NCBI GenBank assembly: GCA_030430565.1
Contig: JAUIKS010000008.1
Span: 303,225 to 346,043 of the forward strand
Direction: 5' to 3'
Source of the DNA: Polyangia bacterium
GTDB lineage: Bacteria > Myxococcota_A > Polyangia > Nannocystales > Nannocystaceae
DNA: 42,819 nucleotides
Positions 6,029-26,592 of this stretch are shown here, piece by piece. How positions within the stretch are numbered: position 1 is the stretch's first letter; each line of letters starts with the position of its first letter. The translations under genes and the position numbers were made by a program. The notes below the pieces were generated by a model. The model was not told the origin of the DNA, ran no database searches, and saw only the letters and a list, made by a program, of their open reading frames with translations.

Positions 6029-7903
6029 GTGGTGTCCGTTCTGATATCGTCCCGCGGCATGTCCGGCGCCCGGCCGCAACGAAATTTCGCCTGCTTCGCG
6101 CGCTGGGTCGAACGCGCTCGGATCGCGGAGCGGCTCGCAGTCGCGGCCTGTGGCAAATCCACATCGACCGCGACGCGGGCCATCGACCGCGACGCCGTCC
6201 AGACCGCCTGGCGACGCGCGAGCCGGGCCGTGGCCGCCCGCGTGGCCATGGCCTGCGCGCGGGAGCGACTCGTGGACGGTACGTGGGCCAACGATTCGCT
6301 CGTACTCCGGCCGCTGGGCATCTCCTTGCCGCTCGCGCGGCTGTCCGCCTTTGAGCTCCACGAGCCCGAGCTGGACGCCCCGCGGGCCGCGACGCTCGAG
6401 GACCCGGTCGCGCTGCTCGACGCGCTGTGGCCGACGCTGTCGGCGGTCGTGGAGATCCCGCGTGTGGGCGAGGGACGCGTGCGCGCCGAGCTCGAGGACT
6501 GCGTCTTTAACCTCGCGCTCAACGAGTACGCCGCGGGCGCGCGTCATCGCGTCGCCGCCGAGCGCGGCGAAGTCGGGCCGAGCCCCGCGCTCATCGACTC
6601 CGAGCAGCTCCCGACGGCCGGGCACCCGTGGCACCCGCTGTGTAAGACCCGGCTCGGGCTCTCGCTGCGCGAGAACCTGCTGCACGCGCCCGAGCTCCTG
6701 GGCGACGGCTCGTTCCTCGCGGTCGACATCGACGCCGCCCACGCGGCGACCAGCGGGCGCTACCTCGAGCTCGCCGCGCGGGTGCTGCCGACCCCGCCCA
6801 AGGGACAGGTGCGTGTGCCGGTCCACCCCGCGCAGCTGCGGCGCCTGCCCGCGCTGCTCGGGCGCTCCTTCGGACAGGTCGTACGCGCGGTCGCGCTCCC
6901 ACACGGATCCGTTCGCGCGCGCGCGCTGCTCAGCACGCGCACGGTCGTCGTCGACGCCCCGCGCGTCGCGGCGCGGCTGCACGTCAAGCTCGCCGTCAAC
7001 GTGCTCACGACCAGCGCCACGCGGACCGTCTCCCCGATGAGCCAGATCAACGGTCCGCGCGTGAGCGCGCTGCTCGAGCGCATCCGAGCCCGCGACCCGG
7101 AGACGCGCGGGCGCGTGCTGATTCAGCCCGACGGCGGCGGCGCGGGCCTGCTGCAATCACGCTACGGCGACGCGGCGCGCCAGCTGGGCGTCATCCTCCG
7201 CGAGTCCCACGAGCCGCTGGCGCGCGCGCTCGTCCCCGAGCCAGCGCGCACGCCGAGAGCCTGGGTCTGCGCGGCCTTGGGAGAGCGCCCCCCCGGGGGC
7301 GCCCGCTGTCTGCTCGCCGAGCTCGCGGCGGGCTACCCCGGCGCACCGCAGGCCCGCGGCGAGGCGATGATCGCCGACTACGTGAACGCCCTCGCGCCGC
7401 CGCTGCTGCGCATGCTCACGGCCCACGGCGTCGCCCTCGAGGCGCACCTGCAAAACACCCTGGTGGTCAGCGACGGCGCGCGCGTCCGCGGCTTCCTCAT
7501 CCGCGATCTGGGCGGCATCCGCGTGCACAGGCCGCGCCTGCGCGCCGCCGGTCACTCCCTCGAGCTGGCGCCGGGCTCGTTCATCGCCACCGACTCCCTC
7601 GAGGAGGTCCAGCGCAAGCTCAGCCACGTGCTGTTTCACGCCCACCTCGCCGCCGTGTTCTCGGCGGCGGCGCGCTCGCTCGCGATCCCCGAGCGCCGGT
7701 GCTGGGCGCTGACGCGGGACGTCGTCGCGCGCGCGCTCACGACCTGGTCCCGAGATCCAGCGCTGCGCGCGGCCTGTGAACGCGACCGCGTCGCCTTGCT
7801 CGCGCCGCGCTGTCACGCCAAGGCGCTGTTTCACATGCGCCTGCTCGACCGCAGCAGCGACTACCGCTACACGGTGGTCGACAACGCGCTCGCCGGGGGC
7901 TGA
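6029..7903 (+). CDS. IucA/IucC-family ATP-dependent amide ligase (NRPS-independent siderophore synthetase-like) with FhuF-like C-terminal domain
   Basis: 624 aa. GTG start at 6029 with GGAGG immediately upstream; the start is uncertain and the next ATG is at 6059. Motif [14 protein letters not shown] resembles the conserved H-x-Q-N segment of IucA/IucC enzymes. The C-terminal [11 protein letters not shown] region resembles the FhuF-like domain. The family call is motif-level only. Confidence 0.6.
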
Positions 7904-7941
7904 GCGCGCTCCCGGATCACGGGCCTGGTATCGTGCGGCGC

Positions 7942-8859
7942 ATGACGACGCCCCGTCTCCCGCTCCTGTTCTCGCTGCCCGCGTACGAATACTTGCAGCG
8001 CGACCTGCTGGCGCTCGGGGGCCTCGAGCGCGGCGAGCTGAGCACCAAGCTGTTCCCCGACGGCGAGCGCTACATGCGGCTGCTGACCGCGGTCGAGGGG
8101 CGCGAGGTCGTGCTACTCGGCGGCACCGTCGACGACGCCGCGACGCTGATGCTCTACGACCTGGCCTGCGCGATCGTGAAGCTCGGCGCGCGCAAGCTGA
8201 CGCTCGTCGTCCCCTACTTCGCCTACTCGACCATGGAGCGCGCCGTGAAGCCCGGCGAGGTCGTCACGGCCAAGACGCGCGCGCGCCTGCTCTCGGCAAT
8301 CCCGCCGGCGAGCTACGGCAACCGCATCGTCCTGCTCGACCTGCACAGCGAGGGCATCCCGCACTACTTCGAAGGCGAGCTGACCGCGATCCACGTGTAC
8401 GGCAAGCCGCTCGTGCGCGCGGCCGCGCGCCGGCTCGGCGGCGAAGAGTTCGTGCTCGCGTGCACGGACGCCGGCCGCGCCAAGTGGGTCGAGTCGCTCG
8501 CCCACGACCTGCACGTGACGCCCGCGTTCGTGTTCAAGCGCCGGCTCTCGGGCTCCGAGACCGAGGTCGCGGCCGTGAGCGCGCAGGTCGAGGGCCGCCG
8601 CGTGATCATCTACGACGACATGATCCGCACGGGCGGCTCGCTGCTCGGCGCGGCCCGAGCCTACAAAGACGCCGGCGCGACCAGCCTCGCGTGCATCACG
8701 ACCCACGCGCTGCTGCCGGGCGACGCCTTCGGCCGGCTGCAGCGCAGCGGGGTCTTCACGGACATCGTGGCGACCGACAGCCACCCGCGCGCCCGCGAGC
8801 TCGCGGCCCAGGGCCTCGGCGTCGAGAGCTGCGCCGCGCTGCTCCACGAGCACCTCTGA
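7942..8859 (+). CDS. Ribose-phosphate pyrophosphokinase (PRPP synthetase) paralog, divergent
   Basis: 305 aa from the ATG at 7942; the ORF track starts at a GTG at 7933. Collinear with Prs throughout: N-terminal LFS...LA..L.LG......KLFPDGE (Prs FSDGE motif), [22 protein letters not shown] (Prs DLHA.QIQGFF), and a PRPP-binding loop [13 protein letters not shown]. The canonical YARQDRK stretch is replaced by YSTMERAVK. Confidence 0.7.
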
Positions 8860-8903: not shown

Positions 8904-10892
8904 ATGCAGCTCATCAAAGTCGCCGCCGCCGCGGTCAACCAGACCCCGCTCGCCTGGGACACCAACCAGGCCAACATCACGCGCGCGATCGCGCTGGCCC
9001 GCGCGGCCGGCGTGACGCTCTTGTGCCTGCCCGAGATGTGCACCAGCGGATATGGCTGTGAGGACAGCTTTCACAGCCGCGGCGTGATCGAGCAGGCCTG
9101 GCGCGTGCTCACCGAGATCGCGCCCGCGACCGCCGGGATGATCGTCTCGCTCGGCCTCCCGATCGTGCACCGCGCGGCCGTCTACAACGCCGCCGCGCTG
9201 CTCGTCGACGGGCGCGTCGCCGGCCTGGTCGGCAAGCGCTTCCTCGCCGGCGACGGGATTCACTACGAGCCGCGCTGGTTTCGCCCGTGGCCCGCCGGCG
9301 CCGCGGTCGACTGGTCCCACCAAGGCGAGCGCTACCGGCTCGGCGACCTGCTGTTCGAGGTCGGCGGGCTGCGGATCGGCTTCGAGATCTGCGAGGACGC
9401 GTGGGTCCCCAACAGGCCCGCGGGGCGCCTCGCCGGTCAGGGCGCCGACTTCATCCTCAACCTCAGCGCCTCGCACTTCGCCTTCGGCCGCCACGAGCAG
9501 CGCCGACGGCTCGTCGTCGAGGGCTCGCGCGCGTTCGGGACGACCTACATCTACGCGAACCTGCTGGGCAACGAGGCCGGCCGCGTCATCTACGGCGGCG
9601 ACGCGCTGATCGCCTCCTGCGGCAAGCTGCTCGCGGCGGGGCCGCGCTTCGGCTTCGAGCCCGCCTACCTGACCGCCTGCGTCGTCGACGTCGACGCGAC
9701 GCGCCTCTACCACGCGCGCACCGCCAGCTTCACGCCCTCGGTCGTCGACCCGCCGGGCAGCGTCGTCGAGGTCCCGGCCGAGTTCCTGCGCGAGCAGATC
9801 GACATCGAGACGCAGTCGGTCGTCGACCCGGCGTGGGCGCGCAGCGACGACTGGAAGTTCGAGGAGTTCACGCGCGCCGAGGCGCTCGCGCTCTACGACT
9901 ACCTGCGCAAGAGCAAGACGCGCGGCTTCGTGATCTCGCTCAGCGGCGGCGCCGACTCGGCGGCCTGCGCCTGCCTCGTCTACTACGCGATCGCGCTGGC
10001 GACCGAGGAGCGCGGCCTCGCCCGCGTCTGCGAGGCGCTGGGATATGACCCCGAGGCCATCCCGAGCTTCGCGGCGCTGATGCGTCAGCTGCTGACCTGC
10101 GTGTACCAGGCGACGCGCAACAGCTCCGAGACCACGCGCGCGGCCGCCGAGGCCGTGGCCGCGGCGGTGCACGCCGACTACCTCGAGCTCGACGTCGACG
10201 CGCTCGTCAACGGCTACACGTCGATGATCGCCGGCGCGCTCGCGCGGCCGCTGACTTGGGAGACCGACGACATCGCGCTGCAGAACATCCAGGCCCGCGC
10301 CCGCGCGCCGGGCGTGTGGATGATCGCCAACATCCGCAACGCGCTATTGCTCGCGACCAGCAACCGCTCGGAGGCCGCCGTCGGCTACGCGACCATGGAC
10401 GGCGACACCAGCGGGAGCCTGAGCCCGATCGCGGGCATCGACAAGGCGTCGCTGCGCAAGTGGCTGCGCTGGGCCGAGGTCCGCGGCCCCGAGGGCGTCG
10501 GCCCGATCCCCGCGCTGAAGGCCATCAACTCACAGCAACCAACCGCCGAGCTGCGCCCGCCCGGCGAGGGGCAGACCGACGAGGGCGACCTGATGCCCTA
10601 CCCGATCCTCGACGCGATCGAGCGCGCGGCGATCCGCGACAAGCTGCCGCCGCGCGACTGCTTTCGGCGCATGCGCACGCGCTATCCCGAGCTCGCCAAG
10701 GCCACGCTGTTCGCCTACATCGAGCGCTTCTTCAAGCTGTGGAGCCGCAACCAGTGGAAGCGCGAGCGCTACGCGCCCTCGTTCCATCTCGACGACGAGA
10801 ACCTCGACCCGAAGACCTGGTGCCGCTTCCCGATCCTCTCTGGCGGCTTTCAGCGCGAGCTGGACGAGCTGCGCCGCGAGCTCGAGCTGTAG
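8904..10892 (+). CDS. nadE: Glutamine-dependent NAD(+) synthetase (N-terminal CN-hydrolase/nitrilase domain + C-terminal NAD synthase domain)
   Basis: 662 aa with an ATG start. Nitrilase-domain start (LLCLPEMCTSGYGCED). NAD-synthase P-loop SGGADSAA (GFVISLSGGADSAACACLV). Length and architecture match long-form NadE. Confidence 0.85.
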   Translation: MQLIKVAAAAVNQTPLAWDTNQANITRAIALARAAGVTLLCLPEMCTSGYGCEDSFHSRGVIEQAWRVLTEIAPATAGMIVSLGLPIVHRAAVYNAAALLVDGRVAGLVGKRFLAGDGIHYEPRWFRPWPAGAAVDWSHQGERYRLGDLLFEVGGLRIGFEICEDAWVPNRPAGRLAGQGADFILNLSASHFAFGRHEQRRRLVVEGSRAFGTTYIYANLLGNEAGRVIYGGDALIASCGKLLAAGPRFGFEPAYLTACVVDVDATRLYHARTASFTPSVVDPPGSVVEVPAEFLREQIDIETQSVVDPAWARSDDWKFEEFTRAEALALYDYLRKSKTRGFVISLSGGADSAACACLVYYAIALATEERGLARVCEALGYDPEAIPSFAALMRQLLTCVYQATRNSSETTRAAAEAVAAAVHADYLELDVDALVNGYTSMIAGALARPLTWETDDIALQNIQARARAPGVWMIANIRNALLLATSNRSEAAVGYATMDGDTSGSLSPIAGIDKASLRKWLRWAEVRGPEGVGPIPALKAINSQQPTAELRPPGEGQTDEGDLMPYPILDAIERAAIRDKLPPRDCFRRMRTRYPELAKATLFAYIERFFKLWSRNQWKRERYAPSFHLDDENLDPKTWCRFPILSGGFQRELDELRRELEL

Positions 10893-10897
10893 CGATC

Positions 10898-11959
10898 GTG
10901 CACCCGGCGGACCGCGAGCGCGTCGACGCGATCAAGGACTGGCTCGAGGAGGAGCCGAGCCGCGGCCTGTTTCGCTCGCTGCTCCGCGCGCTGCGTGAGC
11001 TCCTCGATCCGGCGCTGCGGCGCGACCTCATCGCCTACTGCGCGCGCGCGCTGCGGCCGTGGCCGACAACGCTGCGCGAGGTCCAGGAGCCGTTCTTCCT
11101 CGACGCCTGGATGGACGCGCCGGACGAGGTCATGACCCTGATCCAGGCGATCGCGGCCCACGAGATCGGCGTCGACGACGACGCGCTCACGCGACTCGCC
11201 GCGCTGCCGGAGCTCCGCGGGCTGCGGCGGCTCGAGCTGTACTGGAACGGGGTCGGGCTCGCCGGCGTGCAGGCGCTGGTTCACTCCCCGCACCTCCACG
11301 GCCTCGAGCACCTCGGGCTGCGCTACAACCGGATCGACGCGCGCTGCGTCCGCGCGATCGCGGACGCGCCGAACCTCCGGCGCCTGCGTCACCTCGACCT
11401 CGGCGAGAACGCGCTCGGCCCCGCGTCGGTGCGGGCGCTGGGCGACTCGGGCGACCTGCCGGCGCTGCGCTCCCTGGTGATCTCGGAGGTTCGGGAGGGG
11501 CTCACGAGCGCGCGGGCGCTGTCGCGGTCGCGGCTGAGCGCGCGGCTCGAGCGACTCGAGCTCGTCAACGCGCGGCTGGGCGATCGCGGCGCCGCAGCCC
11601 TGGTCGCCTCCTCGCGCTGGCGCGCGCTCCGGCACCTCGATCTCAGCGCCAACCAGATCGGCTCGCCGGGGCTCGCAGCGCTGCTGCGCGGCGGCCTGCC
11701 CACGCTCGAGCGATTCGAACTCGGCGAGAACCAAGTCGGCCCCGAGGGCCTCCGCGCGCTCGCCCGCCCTGGCGCGCTCCCGCGGCTCCGCGTGCTCAAC
11801 CTCGCGCAGAGCCCCATCACCGAGATCGGCGCCCGGCTCCTCTCGGAGCCGGCTACGCTGCCCGCCCTGCGGCACCTCGACGTCTCGAGCTGCGGGCTCG
11901 AAGAGCCCGCGCTCGCGCGTCTTCGACGCGCGCGCCCTGAGTGCGCCGTCGAAGGGTAA
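10898..11959 (+). CDS. Cytoplasmic leucine-rich-repeat protein (ribonuclease-inhibitor-like LRRs)
   Basis: Frame is open from within nadE. Proposed GTG start at 10898, 5 nt after the nadE stop; about 353 aa. About 9 tandem 28-29-residue repeats with LxxLxLxxNxIGxxGxxAL spacing (LRHLDLSANQIGSPGLAAL, LERFELGENQVGPEGLRAL). No signal peptide. Confidence 0.7.
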   Translation: MHPADRERVDAIKDWLEEEPSRGLFRSLLRALRELLDPALRRDLIAYCARALRPWPTTLREVQEPFFLDAWMDAPDEVMTLIQAIAAHEIGVDDDALTRLAALPELRGLRRLELYWNGVGLAGVQALVHSPHLHGLEHLGLRYNRIDARCVRAIADAPNLRRLRHLDLGENALGPASVRALGDSGDLPALRSLVISEVREGLTSARALSRSRLSARLERLELVNARLGDRGAAALVASSRWRALRHLDLSANQIGSPGLAALLRGGLPTLERFELGENQVGPEGLRALARPGALPRLRVLNLAQSPITEIGARLLSEPATLPALRHLDVSSCGLEEPALARLRRARPECAVEG

Positions 11960-22570: not shown

Positions 22571-24412
22571 CTACGCGCCCGCCTCGACCGCGCGGAGGGC
22601 CACGATCGCGCGCCGCAGGTCCTTGCGCAGGCAGCCCAGGCAGTCACGCCGCTTAAACGCCTTGCCGCACTCGTCCCGCGGGAGCTTGCTCATCCGGCGC
22701 AGCAGCGGGAGCACGCGCGGGTCGCCGAGCTGCTCCAGCTCGAGCAGCACCGGCTGCTTCTCTTTGCAGGTGCTCGCGCGCTCGATCGCCGCGGCCAGGC
22801 GCGCGTAGTCGGGGACCTCGTCGGCGGGCTCGTGCTCGAGGATCGTCTCGATCGACCTCTTGAGCCGGTTGGGTCGCTTGCCGTCGATCACGACCGCGAT
22901 GGGCTCCTCGAGCTCGGCCGGCGCCGACGCGCCGCGTGATCCCGCGCCTGCCCGCTTCGACACCTTCGCTGTCGCGGCCGCGGGCTCCTCCACGTCTTCG
23001 TCGTCGCGCGACGACGCGCCGTCGTCGGACGATCCCGTCAGCGCGACGACCAACCCACCCACCAGCGCGACCAGCAGCAGCGCCGCGCCAGCGACGATCG
23101 CGAGGTTGCGCCCCGGCGCGCGGGACCGAAGCTCCCCCCGCGCCCCCGCGAGGATGCCGAGCGGGCTGTTCGGGCTCCGCGACGCCGACAGCAGCCGCTC
23201 CGCGGCGGCGGTCGGGGACTCGGCGATCTGCGTGACCGCGACCGGCTCGCGCGCTCCGCTCGGGGGCCCCGCCGGGAACACGACGCCGGCCGCGACGCTC
23301 AGCTCCTTGGGCGCGCCGTCGGCGAGCGCGTTGAGCCGCGTGCAGACCTCGACCGCGTCGCGCGCGCGCGCGGAGGCGTTTCGCGCCAACAGGCGCTCGA
23401 CCAGCTCGACCAGCTCCGCCGGCAGCTCCACGCCCTCGACGCCCGAGAGCGAGGGTGCCTCCTGGGTCAGCTGCATCTCGACGAGCGACTCCAGATCGTC
23501 GGCCGGCCACAGCCGCCGCCCCGAGATGCACTCCCACAGCAGCACGCCGAGCGAGTAGAGGTCGGCGCGCGCGTCGACGACCCCGCCGATCGCCTGCTCC
23601 GGCGCCATGTAGCCGGGCGTGCCGAGCACGACGCCGACGCGCGTGAGGACCGCGCCGTCGTCCGCGACCGGCGAATTCTCGGTGATGCGGGCCAGCCCGA
23701 AGTCGAGCACCCGCGCGAACGCGCTGCCGTCGGCCTGGCGCTCGATGATCAAGTTGTCCGGCTTGAGGTCGCGATGGATGATCCCCAGGCCGTGCGCCAT
23801 GGCGAGCGCGTCGGCGATCTGCCCGCCGAGCCGACACGCGAGCCCCCACGGCAGCGGCCCGCGGGCGAGGATCGCCTCGAGGCTCTGACCGTGCACCAGC
23901 GTGCTCACGAGGAAGGCGCCGCCCTCGAGGAGCTCCCCGTAGTCCATCGCGCCGACGATGTGCGGGTGGTCGAGCAGCGCCGTCACCTTCGCCTCGCGTT
24001 CGAAGCGCGCGAGCACCTCGTCGTGGTTGAGCGTCTCGGCGCGGATGAGCTTGACCGCGACCTGCTTGTTGAGCTTGAGGTGCTCGGCGCGGTACACCGA
24101 GCCCATGCCGCCCTCGCCGATCTTGTCGAGGATCCGGTAGCGCCCCTCGATGACGCGCCCGATCATCGGGTCGATCGCCACGCCGAGCTCCGCCTCGTCC
24201 GCGACGACCTGCGCGGTCAGGCCCGCGGGCCCCTGCTCCTCGCTCGGCGCCGCCGCGGGCGCGGGGGCCGGCTCGATCGGGCGCGGCGTGACGAACATGG
24301 TGCCGCCCTTGGCGAGCGCGCTCCAGTCGGGCGCCCCGGGCTGCGCCCCCTGCAGCTGGGCCTCTGAGCCGATGCCGGAGAACGCTCCGCCCTGCGAGTC
24401 ATCGTTCGTCAT
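22571..24412 (-). CDS. Eukaryotic-like Ser/Thr protein kinase with single TM segment and C-terminal extracytoplasmic region
   Basis: ATG at 24410-24412 (MTNDDS); the ORF track starts 20 codons earlier. Hanks-type motifs: GEGGMGSVYRA (Gly loop), VAVK, HRDLKPDN (catalytic loop), DFG, GTPGYMAPE. TM helix LAIVAGAALLLVALVGGLVVAL. Confidence 0.85.
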   Translation of the reverse strand: MTNDDSQGGAFSGIGSEAQLQGAQPGAPDWSALAKGGTMFVTPRPIEPAPAPAAAPSEEQGPAGLTAQVVADEAELGVAIDPMIGRVIEGRYRILDKIGEGGMGSVYRAEHLKLNKQVAVKLIRAETLNHDEVLARFEREAKVTALLDHPHIVGAMDYGELLEGGAFLVSTLVHGQSLEAILARGPLPWGLACRLGGQIADALAMAHGLGIIHRDLKPDNLIIERQADGSAFARVLDFGLARITENSPVADDGAVLTRVGVVLGTPGYMAPEQAIGGVVDARADLYSLGVLLWECISGRRLWPADDLESLVEMQLTQEAPSLSGVEGVELPAELVELVERLLARNASARARDAVEVCTRLNALADGAPKELSVAAGVVFPAGPPSGAREPVAVTQIAESPTAAAERLLSASRSPNSPLGILAGARGELRSRAPGRNLAIVAGAALLLVALVGGLVVALTGSSDDGASSRDDEDVEEPAAATAKVSKRAGAGSRGASAPAELEEPIAVVIDGKRPNRLKRSIETILEHEPADEVPDYARLAAAIERASTCKEKQPVLLELEQLGDPRVLPLLRRMSKLPRDECGKAFKRRDCLGCLRKDLRRAIVALRAVEAGA

Positions 24413-24735
24413 CAAGCGCCACTCACCGTCGCCAGCCGGTCGCGCGCGCGAGCGCGGCGCCGATCCACCCACGACGAGAGTACCGCGTGCGCGCGCTCGG
24501 GGACTAGCCCCATCGCGCGCCGTGGTTCTGCCGCGAACGACGAGCGCACGAGGCTACAGCAGATGCTCGCGCGTCGCTTCGCGTTCGCCTCGTTCGCGCT
24601 TCGGTCCGCTCGCTGCATTTCCGCCCCCTTGCCGATCGCGCGTCGAGACGTGATGAGCGATGGGGACTCGCGCGAACGGACCGACGACGACCGGGCCGCG
24701 GGCCCGCGCGCCATCGCGCCGAGCGGGCGCGCGAC

Positions 24736-26592
24736 TCAGGCGCGCTCCTGCGTGATCCCGTAGCGCTTGAGCTTGTTCAAGAATGTCCGCAGGGGCATCT
24801 TGATCAGCCGGGCCGCCTGGGTCTTGTTCCCGCCGGAGGCGCGCATCGCCTCGGAGATCCGGCGCACCTCGAGCTCGCGGATCTCCTCCTGCAGCGGGCG
24901 GAAGCGGGGCGTGTCGTCCTCCCCGGGCGCCGGGCGCTGCGGAGCCGCGCCCGCGCCCGCGCGCGGCGGCGGCTCCTGCTCCAGCAGATCTCCGACGTGC
25001 CAGGACTCGAGCGTGCTCCCCGAGATCACGCTCGCGGCGTACTCCATCGCGTTGCGGAGCTGCCGGATGTTCCCGGGCCACGAGCGCGCCGCGAGGTCCC
25101 GCATCGCGTCGCCCGTGATCACGAGCGGCGCGCGGCCCTGGCGGACGCAGGCGTCCGTCAAGAACTTGCGCGCGAGGATGGCGAGCTCGCGCGGCCGGTC
25201 GCGCAGCGGCGGCAGCCACAGCCGCGCACCACCTAGCCGAAAGAACAGGTCTTCCCGGAACCGCCCCTCGCTGACCGCGTCCTTGAGCTCGCGGTGGGTC
25301 GCCGCGATCATCCGGACGTCGATCGAGATCTCGGAGATGCCGCCGACCCGCATGATCCGCTGGCTCTCGAGCGCGCGCAGCAGCTTGGCCTGCGCGACCA
25401 GGCTCAGCTCCGCGACCTCGTCGAGGAACACCGAGCCGCCGTTCGCCGCCTCGAGCAGGCCGACCTTGGTCGCGTGCGCGCCCGTGAAGGCGCCCCGCTC
25501 GTGGCCGAACAGCTCGCTCTCGATCAGGCTGTCTTGCAGCGCCGCGCAGTTGAGCGCGACGAGCCGCCCGCTCGCCCGCGGCGACCAGTGGTGTATCGCG
25601 CGCGCGACCAGCTCTTTGCCGGTCCCGGTCTCGCCGCACACGAGCACCGGGATGTCCGAGGCCGCGACTCGCTCGGCGATCCCGTACACGCGCAGCGTCG
25701 CCAGGTCCGCCGCGACGATCTCGACGTCACCCGTGTGGATCATGCGATAGGCGTCCGTCGCGTCGATGACCAGGCCGGGCGCCGCCGTGTCGACGGCCGC
25801 GCGCGCGGCCGCGATCATCGTCTCGATCTGCGCGCCGTCGCGGGGACAGCACGCGAAGCCCATCCGGCACCCCGGGTCGACCCGCGAGAGCGCCGCGTGC
25901 ACCCCCCGCGCCAGCTCGCGCCCGTCCTCGGCGTCCGCCTCCGGCATCAGCAGCAGCAGCACGCCGTCGGGCTCGGGGGCCGCCGTGTCGATCGCCCGCA
26001 GCTGCTTCATCAGCACCGGCTCGATCGCGCGGTGATCCGCGGCGGGCAGACGCACCGCGACGACGCAGAGGTCGCGCCCGAAGTTGACCGCGCGCAGTAG
26101 CTCCTCGCCGAGCCGCGCGCGGAAGTCCGCCTTGTCGATCATGCGACGCCCGCCGCGCGCCCGCCCGCGCGCGTGGTAGATGATCGTCGTGTTCGCGATC
26201 GAGATGACGTCGCCCGGGTGGAGCAGGTGCGGCGCGTCGATCCGCTGGTCGTTGACCGCGGTGCCGTTCTGGCTGCCGAGGTCGAAGATCGTCGCGCGGC
26301 CGTCCTCGATCACGAGCTGCGCGTGCCGCCGCGACGCGAGGTAGTCGACGATCTGCAGGCCGACCTCGACCGCGCGGCCGATCAACACGACGCCGGCGCG
26401 CGGGAGCGTGAAGACGAAGGCCGAGTCTCGCTGCAGCACCATCAGGTAGCCCGGCGCGTCAGCCTGCCCGTCGGCCTGCTCGTCCGCGCTCGACGAGCTC
26501 GGCGCCGAGAGGGTGTTGTGCAGCGTCGGCGCCGACCACAGGTGCCCCTTCGGTTTGCGCGGGGCCGCGCCGCCGCTGTTGCTCTCGTCCAT
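24736..26592 (-). CDS. Sigma-54-dependent transcriptional activator (bacterial enhancer-binding protein) with N-terminal FHA domain and C-terminal Fis-type HTH
   Basis: 618 aa with an ATG start. FHA-like GRAVEVGLQIVDYLASRRHAQLVIEDGRATIFDLGSQNGTAVN. AAA+ sigma-54 interaction domain: Walker A GETGTGKE, ESELFGHERGAFTGA (GAFTGA motif), Walker B SVFLDEV, arginine finger region RQLRN. C-terminal HTH KTQAARLIKMPLRTFLNKLKRYG. Confidence 0.85.
   Translation of the reverse strand: MDESNSGGAAPRKPKGHLWSAPTLHNTLSAPSSSSADEQADGQADAPGYLMVLQRDSAFVFTLPRAGVVLIGRAVEVGLQIVDYLASRRHAQLVIEDGRATIFDLGSQNGTAVNDQRIDAPHLLHPGDVISIANTTIIYHARGRARGGRRMIDKADFRARLGEELLRAVNFGRDLCVVAVRLPAADHRAIEPVLMKQLRAIDTAAPEPDGVLLLLMPEADAEDGRELARGVHAALSRVDPGCRMGFACCPRDGAQIETMIAAARAAVDTAAPGLVIDATDAYRMIHTGDVEIVAADLATLRVYGIAERVAASDIPVLVCGETGTGKELVARAIHHWSPRASGRLVALNCAALQDSLIESELFGHERGAFTGAHATKVGLLEAANGGSVFLDEVAELSLVAQAKLLRALESQRIMRVGGISEISIDVRMIAATHRELKDAVSEGRFREDLFFRLGGARLWLPPLRDRPRELAILARKFLTDACVRQGRAPLVITGDAMRDLAARSWPGNIRQLRNAMEYAASVISGSTLESWHVGDLLEQEPPPRAGAGAAPQRPAPGEDDTPRFRPLQEEIRELEVRRISEAMRASGGNKTQAARLIKMPLRTFLNKLKRYGITQERA

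Follow-up and report, generated by a model that had tools for sequence, protein, structure and literature searches.

A Class IV PRPP synthase gene next to nadE in a Nannocystaceae contig and the association of its family with NAD-salvage operons

Described PRPP synthases and the gene at 7942-8859

A bioRxiv preprint of June 2026 (10.64898/2026.06.01.728777) covers more than 35,000 sequences of phosphoribosyl pyrophosphate (PRPP) synthases (PRPS; Prs) and divides the bacterial enzymes into Classes IA-C, II and IV-XI. In this work, we describe a prs gene that is located at positions 7942 to 8859 of a 42,819-nucleotide stretch of contig JAUIKS010000008.1 from a Polyangia bacterium (Nannocystaceae); the whole stretch is referred to as the window. 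Judged by its sequence, the gene encodes a bacterial member of the already described Class IV, and it very probably specifies an active, feedback-insensitive PRPP synthase that is tied to the salvage of nicotinamide adenine dinucleotide (NAD).

Class IV is characterized in the preprint by an STMER sequence in the regulatory flexible (RF) loop together with the retained glutamate of the FLAG region (E39 in human PRPS1), and it comprises 763 bacterial sequences as well as eukaryotic members, for example from Corallochytrium limacisporum (10.64898/2026.06.01.728777). The recombinant Corallochytrium enzyme is described as an active PRPP synthase using ribose-5-phosphate (R5P) together with ATP, which is hexameric and does not form filaments (10.64898/2026.06.01.728777). 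Class I enzymes are also present in 74% of the Class IV species ('augmenters') and are absent in 26% (10.64898/2026.06.01.728777). The main text of the preprint, as far as it is covered by term searches and two of its sections, holds no mention of genomic context. With Class IV, the protein encoded in the window (window Prs) has in common the STMER loop, the FLAG glutamate, a truncated or divergent C-terminus, insertions and an arginine in the R5P loop; the assayed member of the class is eukaryotic, whereas window Prs is myxobacterial and known here from its sequence.

Two further classes are relevant for the comparison. With the Class I enzymes (E. coli, B. subtilis, human PRPS1/2), window Prs shares the two-domain fold, the catalytic, metal-binding and R5P-binding residues and, presumably, the reaction, but it is 26-29% identical to them and lacks their RQDR(K) loop, their allosteric site for ADP and inorganic phosphate (Pi) and their filament interface. 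The Class II enzymes (spinach; Arabidopsis isozymes 3 and 4) possess the related RF loop TTMER but have lost the FLAG glutamate, and they form mixed oligomers, including trimers, which also sets them apart from window Prs (Krath & Hove-Jensen). They are independent of Pi, are not allosterically inhibited by purine nucleoside diphosphates and accept a broad range of diphosphoryl donors (Krath & Hove-Jensen).

Moreover, two described systems connect prs-like genes with NAD metabolism. NrtR-regulated prs paralogues, with a role 'yet to be elucidated', are found in the prs-nadV operons of Shewanella, Acinetobacter and Cytophaga (Rodionov et al. 2008, PMC2330246). Like the genes described below, each of these is a second prs in an NrtR-controlled NAD-salvage operon, but its partner is nadV (Nampt), whereas the Class IV relatives are paired with pncB, nadE and pncA. 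In the phage pathway NARP1 (NAD+ reconstitution pathway 1), the Prs-like enzyme Adps pyrophosphorylates ADP-ribose (ADPR), and 97% of the Adps-clade genes adjoin a gene for Namat, a protein of the Nampt family. Adps shares with window Prs the Prs fold, a NAD-related operon and the KxR catalytic loop.

For the analysis of conservation, 84 bacterial members of the family were used, consisting of 83 genome or metagenome loci and the window. The gene and its diagnostic segments are as follows:

7942..8859, + strand: Class IV prs gene of the STMER type, encoding a PRPP synthase (ribose-phosphate diphosphokinase) of 305 amino acids, based on the open reading frame (ORF), Pfam/NCBIfam, BLASTP and an AlphaFold2 model
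8053..8067, + strand: FLAG region FPDGE, with F38, D40 and E42 invariant in 84/84 members
8224..8244, + strand: RF loop YSTMERA (residues 95-101) in place of Class I YARQDRR, based on alignments; pLDDT 70-74, as expected for a flexible loop
8338..8346, + strand: DLH motif, with H135 as the counterpart of E. coli H131 (alpha-phosphate, Mg site), invariant in 84/84 members
8536..8544, + strand: KRR of the catalytic flexible loop, with K199 and R201 as the counterparts of E. coli K194 and R196, invariant in 84/84 members
8614..8640, + strand: R5P loop DDMIRTGGS (residues 225-233), with D225, D226, T230 and S233 as the counterparts of E. coli D220, D221, T225 and T228

The ORF extends on the + strand from an ATG at 7942 to a TGA at 8857-8859. 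An in-frame GTG at 7933 represents an alternative start that would add three residues; the ATG at 7942 agrees with a database copy (P0001, 100% identical, 305 amino acids) and with the N-termini of homologues. The third-position GC content of the ORF (7933/7942-8859) is 0.97 and the G+C content of the window is about 72%; the closest protein relatives of the window carry the names Nannocystaceae or Myxococcales. The protein contains the Pfam domains Pribosyltran_N, Pribosyltran and Pribosyl_synth and passes the broad subfamily model TIGR01251 (170 bits vs a cutoff of 113), while none of the NCBIfam equivalog models for bacterial Prs was passed (best score 153 bits vs a cutoff of 296). The AlphaFold2 model (pLDDT 91.5, pTM 0.89) shows a complete two-domain fold, with lower confidence confined to the RF loop, the DLH-proximal loop and the catalytic loop, and Foldseek aligned it with TM scores of 0.82-0.88 to the enzymes of human (PRPS1/2), E. 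coli, Thermus, Mycobacterium and Sulfolobus.

The comparison set consisted of five Class IV proteins of eukaryotes, taken from supplementary table 4 of the preprint (10.64898/2026.06.01.728777). In BLASTP, window Prs was nearest to the Class IV proteins of Monocercomonoides, Anaeramoeba and Streblomastix (37-38% identity, 166-181 bits), followed by E. coli Class I (28.7%, 108 bits) and by two Adps-type proteins from phages (25%, 65-69 bits). With the eukaryotic Class IV proteins it also has the class-specific features GYSTMERA, GIxHYFEG, DxGRxKWV, YDDMxR[ST]GG and [DN]SHP in common, as well as a four-residue insertion before DLH. Besides this similarity, Class IV is indicated by STMER with Thr at the position of R96, the FLAG glutamate, the complete catalytic set and the absence of the C-terminal filament and allosteric residues. 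Neither the RQDR/K loop nor allosteric site 1 nor a passed equivalog cutoff, all expected for Class I, was found in window Prs. The TTMER loop and the loss of the FLAG glutamate that define Class II were likewise not found, as window Prs has STMER and an FPDGE with E42. Since STMER is a known signature of Class IV, the missing RQDR is no sign of a new substrate.

Nucleotide-reading, catalytic and allosteric residues

In phmmer/HMMER alignments, the RF segment of window Prs falls directly and without gaps on PYLAYSRQDRRF (Sulfolobus, 4twb), PYFGYARQDRRP (Burkholderia, 3dah) and PYYGYARQDRKA (B. subtilis, 1dkr), which are Class I/III sequences from solved Prs structures. Since these alignments show neither gap nor shift, RQDR is truly replaced by TMER. 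An earlier note on this DNA, made from the sequence alone, had described a Prs paralogue without the RQDR stretch and was correct in this respect; the possibility it had kept in mind, namely RQDR equivalents in a shifted position, can be dismissed, as these alignments show none. The collinearity of the remaining Prs motifs it had reported was confirmed too, with FPDGE, DLH, KRR and DDMIRTGGS all at the positions listed above.

From human/E. coli to window numbering, the replacement comprises R96 to T97, Q97 to M98 and D98 to E99, whereas R99, a beta-phosphate contact, is retained as R100. T97, M98, E99 and R100 are invariant in 84/84 bacterial members (55-100% identical overall) and also in two successive sets of homologues with 62-90% identity, of 12 and 57 sequences. 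Among the best 150 cluster representatives (50% identity level) from a library of 1.84 billion proteins, at least 100 carry an xTMER/xTMDR-type motif, 76 having STMER, with the remainder being mostly fragments. On the evidence of these alignments, the TMER substitution is neither chance nor decay.

Residue roles were taken from E. coli cryo-electron microscopy structures and the structure of human PRPS2 (hPRPS2) and then mapped onto the family. In the E. coli and human structures, the equivalent of F38 stacks on the adenine, and the D40 and E42 equivalents of the neighbouring subunit are in contact with the donor nucleotide. The Class I residues F35, D37 and E39 (FLAG), R99, H131, D170, K194, R196, D220, D221, T225 and T228 are all conserved, the last one as S233, and F38, D40, E42, R100, H135, D176, K199, R201, D225, D226 and T230 of window Prs are invariant in 84/84 members. 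The catalytic-loop lysine included in this set is essential in B. subtilis Prs. One position of the R5P loop deviates: Class I D224 is replaced by R229, and an arginine occupies this position in each of the 84 bacterial members and of the five eukaryotic Class IV sequences. By this distribution, R229 is a second class-specific residue; the searched passages of the preprint (10.64898/2026.06.01.728777) hold no mention of this change.

The regulatory residues show a different picture. Allosteric site 1 of hPRPS2 is formed by S47, R49, K100, R104, Q135, D143, S308, S310 and F313. The equivalent of R49 is E, A or D in the family (E52 in window Prs), the equivalent of human R104/E. coli R105 is an invariant glutamate (E106), and the chain of window Prs stops about 12 residues before the segment of E. 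coli that corresponds to S308/S310/F313. Nor is there a counterpart of the filament residue R302. As far as the residues tell, the canonical allosteric site 1 for ADP/Pi has been lost.

The contacts of the RQDR region are with the diphosphoryl donor and the allosteric effector, not with the ribose-phosphate acceptor, and R96 normally forms a hydrogen bond with N1 of the adenine (10.64898/2026.06.01.728777). Given the retained catalytic and R5P residues on the one hand and the changed RF loop and site 1 on the other, the acceptor site and the chemistry are probably intact, and the alterations probably concern the recognition of the donor base and the control by feedback. The suggestion of the earlier note that substrate or regulation is altered thus holds for nucleotide recognition and regulation (R96 replaced by Thr, site 1 lost) and not for a new acceptor, as the R5P contacts are kept.

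The enzyme would accordingly be expected to transfer the beta,gamma-diphosphoryl group of ATP, and possibly of other nucleoside triphosphates, to C1 of R5P, giving PRPP and AMP. Relative to Class I, it retains all catalytic, metal, ribose and 5-phosphate contacts but has lost the adenine-reading Arg and Gln of the RF loop (RQDR to TMER), as well as the arginines of the ADP/Pi allosteric site and the C-terminal segment completing this site. Because these RF-loop readers, allosteric arginines and the C-terminal segment are lost, the enzyme is predicted to be Pi-independent, insensitive to feedback by ADP and GDP and less specific for the donor, similar to the plant Class II enzymes. While sequence class, residue pattern and fold are direct observations, activity, loss of feedback and donor range are predictions made from them.

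A catalytically dead regulatory paralogue, comparable to the PRPS-associated pseudoenzymes, would be an alternative explanation for a divergent Prs. PRPS pseudoenzymes are common in eukaryotes, Class IV lineages included, and window Prs fails every NCBIfam equivalog cutoff. Nevertheless, the residues diagnostic for activity (FLAG, H130/131, D170/171, Lys and Arg of the catalytic flexible loop, R5P loop) are intact and invariant, the family is strongly conserved with a mean column identity of 61% across 57 sequences, and the modelled two-domain fold is complete, so that a pseudoenzyme appears extremely improbable.

Several relatives of about 510-540 amino acids (P0216, P0220, P0228, P0234, P0258 and others) are STMER-type Prs proteins with N-terminal extensions of about 170-250 residues. 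A Pfam search of these extensions in the ~520-residue relatives identified no domain, and the extended proteins may be eukaryotic or derive from mis-called genes.

NAD genes around the family and the question of ADP-ribose

A pattern scan with one genome per GTDB species yielded at least 575 loci encoding the family, distributed over Myxococcota, Bacteroidota (Cytophagales), Acidobacteriota, Planctomycetota, Melainabacteria and others. Gene neighbourhoods were examined for the 80 best loci and three further ones from protein look-ups. Neighbours were mapped by tblastn with reference proteins, as length-based ORF calling is unreliable at high GC, and Pfam annotation was applied only to low-GC loci. 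In 40 of the 75 loci with enough flanking sequence, pncB is located directly upstream of prs, and nadE follows directly downstream in 36 of 66; in other loci, pncA or nrtR comes next. The typical operon is pncB-prs-nadE-nrtR-pncA, and of the 61 loci with both flanks, 41 contain one or more NAD genes. The pncB-prs-nadE linkage, with gaps of tens of bases, recurs in Myxococcota, Acidobacteriota, Planctomycetota, Bacteroidota and Melainabacteria.

The upstream gene of the relatives passes the equivalog models for PncB (NF006695, 581 vs a cutoff of 469; TIGR01513, 537 vs 297) and matches E. faecalis PncB (2f7f) with E = 4e-119. The downstream pncA passes its own equivalog cutoff as well (267 vs 174). 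Furthermore, a palindrome, (T)AGTGTA-N5-TACACT(A), was found upstream of pncB in 20 of 25 operons, compared with a maximum of four in shuffled sequences. It has the GT-N7-AC core of NrtR operators, which are 21-bp palindromes with this core (Rodionov et al. 2008, PMC2330246); ADP-ribose releases NrtR from DNA. The individual sites lie within 300 nucleotides upstream of pncB, in loci L001, L021, L031, L033 and about 20 others. A separate observation from the 50%-identity library is the 578-residue protein P0276, in which a Class IV-like Prs (RF loop YATQER, R5P loop DDMIRSGGT) is fused to a C-terminal isochorismatase domain of the PncA/nicotinamidase type; this can be taken as a Rosetta-stone hint at a connection between this Prs clade and nicotinamide salvage.

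In the window itself, prs is the middle one of three consecutive + strand genes, being separated by 38 nucleotides from the upstream and by 44 nucleotides from the downstream gene:

6029..7903, + strand: gene for a protein with IucA/IucC and FhuF domains (similar to NRPS-independent siderophore synthetases), based on Pfam and NCBIfam
8904..10892, + strand: nadE, glutamine-dependent NAD+ synthetase with CN_hydrolase and NAD_synthase domains (TIGR00552, 88 vs a cutoff of 63.65)

The NadE protein of the window scores below both full-length NCBIfam equivalog cutoffs (240 vs 479 and 217 vs 473). Sequence comparison places it in a divergent NadE subfamily that travels with Class IV prs and is 54-86% identical across loci. 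The prs-nadE pair persists in Nannocystaceae although pncB, whose usual slot is taken by the IucA/IucC-like gene, has been replaced, and the pair in the window is a remnant of the NrtR-type NAD-salvage operon arrangement.

Taking these neighbourhoods as a guide, Class IV enzymes would typically supply the PRPP that NAD salvage requires. Co-transcription of prs with pncB, nadE, nrtR and pncA behind an NrtR-type operator would apply to many relatives, so that PRPP supply would increase when ADP-ribose signals NAD breakdown. In the lineage of the window, only the prs-nadE pair is left of this arrangement, behind the IucA/IucC-like gene and without nrtR or operator. The neighbourhoods are direct observations, and the physiological role is the interpretation that they suggest.

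Several points weigh against this interpretation. None of the genes pncB, pncA and nrtR is present in the window, and AGTGTA-N5-TACACT was not matched there at up to two mismatches; because of these absences, a role in NAD salvage rests for the window on the adjacency of nadE and on the relatives. The 80 loci are the most similar matches and as such biased towards Myxococcota. In 17 of the 61 loci with both flanks (about a third), there are no NAD genes nearby, and the neighbours are unrelated genes such as those for tetratricopeptide repeat (TPR) proteins, CvpA, YqeY and DnaJ, which is why Class IV is not exclusively an enzyme of NAD operons; in some genomes it may be the general or sole PRPP synthase. 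In addition, the activity data for Class IV come from one eukaryotic member only (10.64898/2026.06.01.728777), and we infer loss of feedback and relaxed donor range from the residues and from Class II. As a side observation on the low-GC Bacteroidota loci (L027, L032, L037-L039, L042, L051, L067, L071 and L076), prs is found there among genes for TPR proteins, CvpA, YqeY, DnaJ and an ECF (extracytoplasmic function) sigma factor, contexts that would also suit a general PRPP synthase, or the only one, of these organisms.

It might therefore be asked whether window Prs is a general housekeeping enzyme, being the main or only Prs of its host, with its position next to nadE reflecting gene order rather than function. 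The intact catalytic residues, the loci without nearby NAD genes, the 26% of Class IV species without Class I and the absence of pncB, pncA, nrtR and an NrtR site from the window would all fit this view. However, Class I is also present in the other 74% of Class IV species, the pncB-prs-nadE linkage with its short gaps recurs over several phyla, a Prs-PncA-like fusion exists, and Nannocystaceae keep the prs-nadE pair even after the replacement of pncB. A pure housekeeping role is hence considered unlikely, and an active Class IV PRPP synthase with a link to NAD salvage is preferred.

By itself, the window protein changes little, since it adds one more bacterial sequence to a class that dates from 2026. 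Modestly new is the recurrent wiring of Class IV into NrtR-type NAD-salvage operons, which offers a physiological rationale for a second, feedback-insensitive PRPP synthase in many bacteria. It suggests that PRPP supply for the rebuilding of NAD is uncoupled from purine-nucleotide feedback and turned on during NAD breakdown, an idea that bears on NAD homeostasis and on NAD-depletion stress.

Because of the adjacent nadE, the earlier note had also considered a nucleotide or NAD-related substrate plausible, though speculative, and had named the phage ADPR pyrophosphokinases as an example of Prs-fold paralogues acting on substrates other than R5P. The connection to NAD turned out to be real, as seen from the pncB-prs-nadE-nrtR-pncA operons of relatives, but the substrate other than R5P was not borne out, given that STMER is the Class IV motif, that the phage genes keep RQDR and that the R5P contacts are intact. 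Spelled out for ADPR, the idea would make the window enzyme an ADPR pyrophosphokinase, a transferase would join nicotinate or nicotinamide to the pyrophosphorylated ADPR (ADPR-PP) to give nicotinic acid adenine dinucleotide (NaAD) or NAD, and NadE would finish this Preiss-Handler-style NARP1; we regard such a pathway as very unlikely. The corresponding version for the pncB-prs-nadE-nrtR-pncA operons, in which Class IV prefers ADPR to R5P, PncB makes NaAD from ADPR-PP and NadE amidates it, is equally hard to believe; if true, free-living bacteria would possess a 'Preiss-Handler NARP' that is induced by ADPR and does not depend on NadD.

Prs-fold enzymes using ADPR do exist, and an operon that lacks nadD and is under control of an ADPR-sensing regulator family, as in the relatives, would suit such a shortcut; yet the partner in these operons is a canonical PncB above the equivalog cutoffs, and the window has no pncB at all. 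A divergent, ADPR-PP-using PncB in the relatives was considered and rejected on the same scores and the E-value of 4e-119 to the E. faecalis enzyme. No Nampt/Namat homologue was detected either, as tblastn with two phage Nampt/Namat proteins (E<=1e-3) gave no match in the window or in the 83 related loci. Although the Class IV assay offered R5P, with ADPR not being among the acceptors, it did reveal PRPP formation from R5P by a eukaryotic member. Since about a third of the loci are without NAD genes, many of them with unrelated neighbours, and 26% of Class IV species are without Class I (10.64898/2026.06.01.728777), Class IV must make PRPP.

With regard to the R5P loop, the class-specific R229 in place of Class I D224 might be seen as a sign of another acceptor. 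The phage genes point to a different kind of change: two phage prs genes from prs-nampt operons (Salmonella phage SE131 and Escherichia phage 4MG), which were identified by their gene neighbourhood and are distinct from the enzymes assayed for SpβL1 and Bas63, retain PY(L/I)PYARQDR, have the 5-phosphate loop DDICDGG with T225 changed to Gly and miss the N-terminal ~20 residues, whereas the window family keeps T230 and S233. Together with the Nampt neighbour, these features set the phage Adps-type proteins apart from window Prs, to which they are about 25% identical, the lowest similarity of all comparisons. With this identity and the different signature (STMER and DDMIRTGGS vs ARQDR and DDICDGG), window Prs was not found to belong to the Adps clade. 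A kinship with phage Adps was also rejected on a broader basis, as tblastn against 50,697 phage records gave matches of about 30% identity or less and the aligned phage genes keep RQDR. NARP3 is based on PnuC/NadR and was set aside as irrelevant. Because the phage prs-nampt genes keep RQDR and alter the 5-phosphate loop, loss of RQDR is not an Adps signature; in annotation, it should be read as a mark of Class IV/II PRPP synthases and not of ADP-ribose kinases.

Further genes of the window

The IucA/IucC-like gene upstream of prs belongs to a subfamily of 79 proteins (E<=1e-10) that is restricted to Nannocystaceae, and it precedes prs only in Nannocystaceae loci, where the proteins are 45-60% identical. 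It is remote from characterized enzymes (AsbB, 7.5e-9; FslA, 108 bits vs a cutoff of 1000), and no other siderophore genes were found near it in the window. In another metagenome-assembled genome the gene again precedes prs-nadE, while in Plesiocystis pacifica and one JGI contig, members of the subfamily stand beside unrelated genes and without prs. An obligate functional pair of the IucA-like protein and Prs was rejected, given that the Plesiocystis and JGI copies are not beside prs, and the adjacency is most readily taken as lineage synteny.

A plasmid or otherwise mobile origin of prs was rejected as well: PLSDB contained no Class IV matches (all <35% identity), and ordinary myxobacterial chromosomal genes surround the gene. 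Directly after nadE, a gene for a leucine-rich-repeat protein is located on the + strand at about 10900-11959; its ORF is listed from 10256, inside nadE in another frame, and the true start lies probably after 10892. At 22571-26592 (- strand), a Ser/Thr protein kinase gene is situated beside a gene for an FHA-domain sigma-54 activator (AAA+, HTH_8), a typical myxobacterial signaling pair. Otherwise, the window carries ordinary chromosomal genes, which encode, among others, a THUMP methyltransferase, a thiamine pyrophosphate (TPP) enzyme, histidine kinases, a radical SAM protein and a MauG-like peroxidase.

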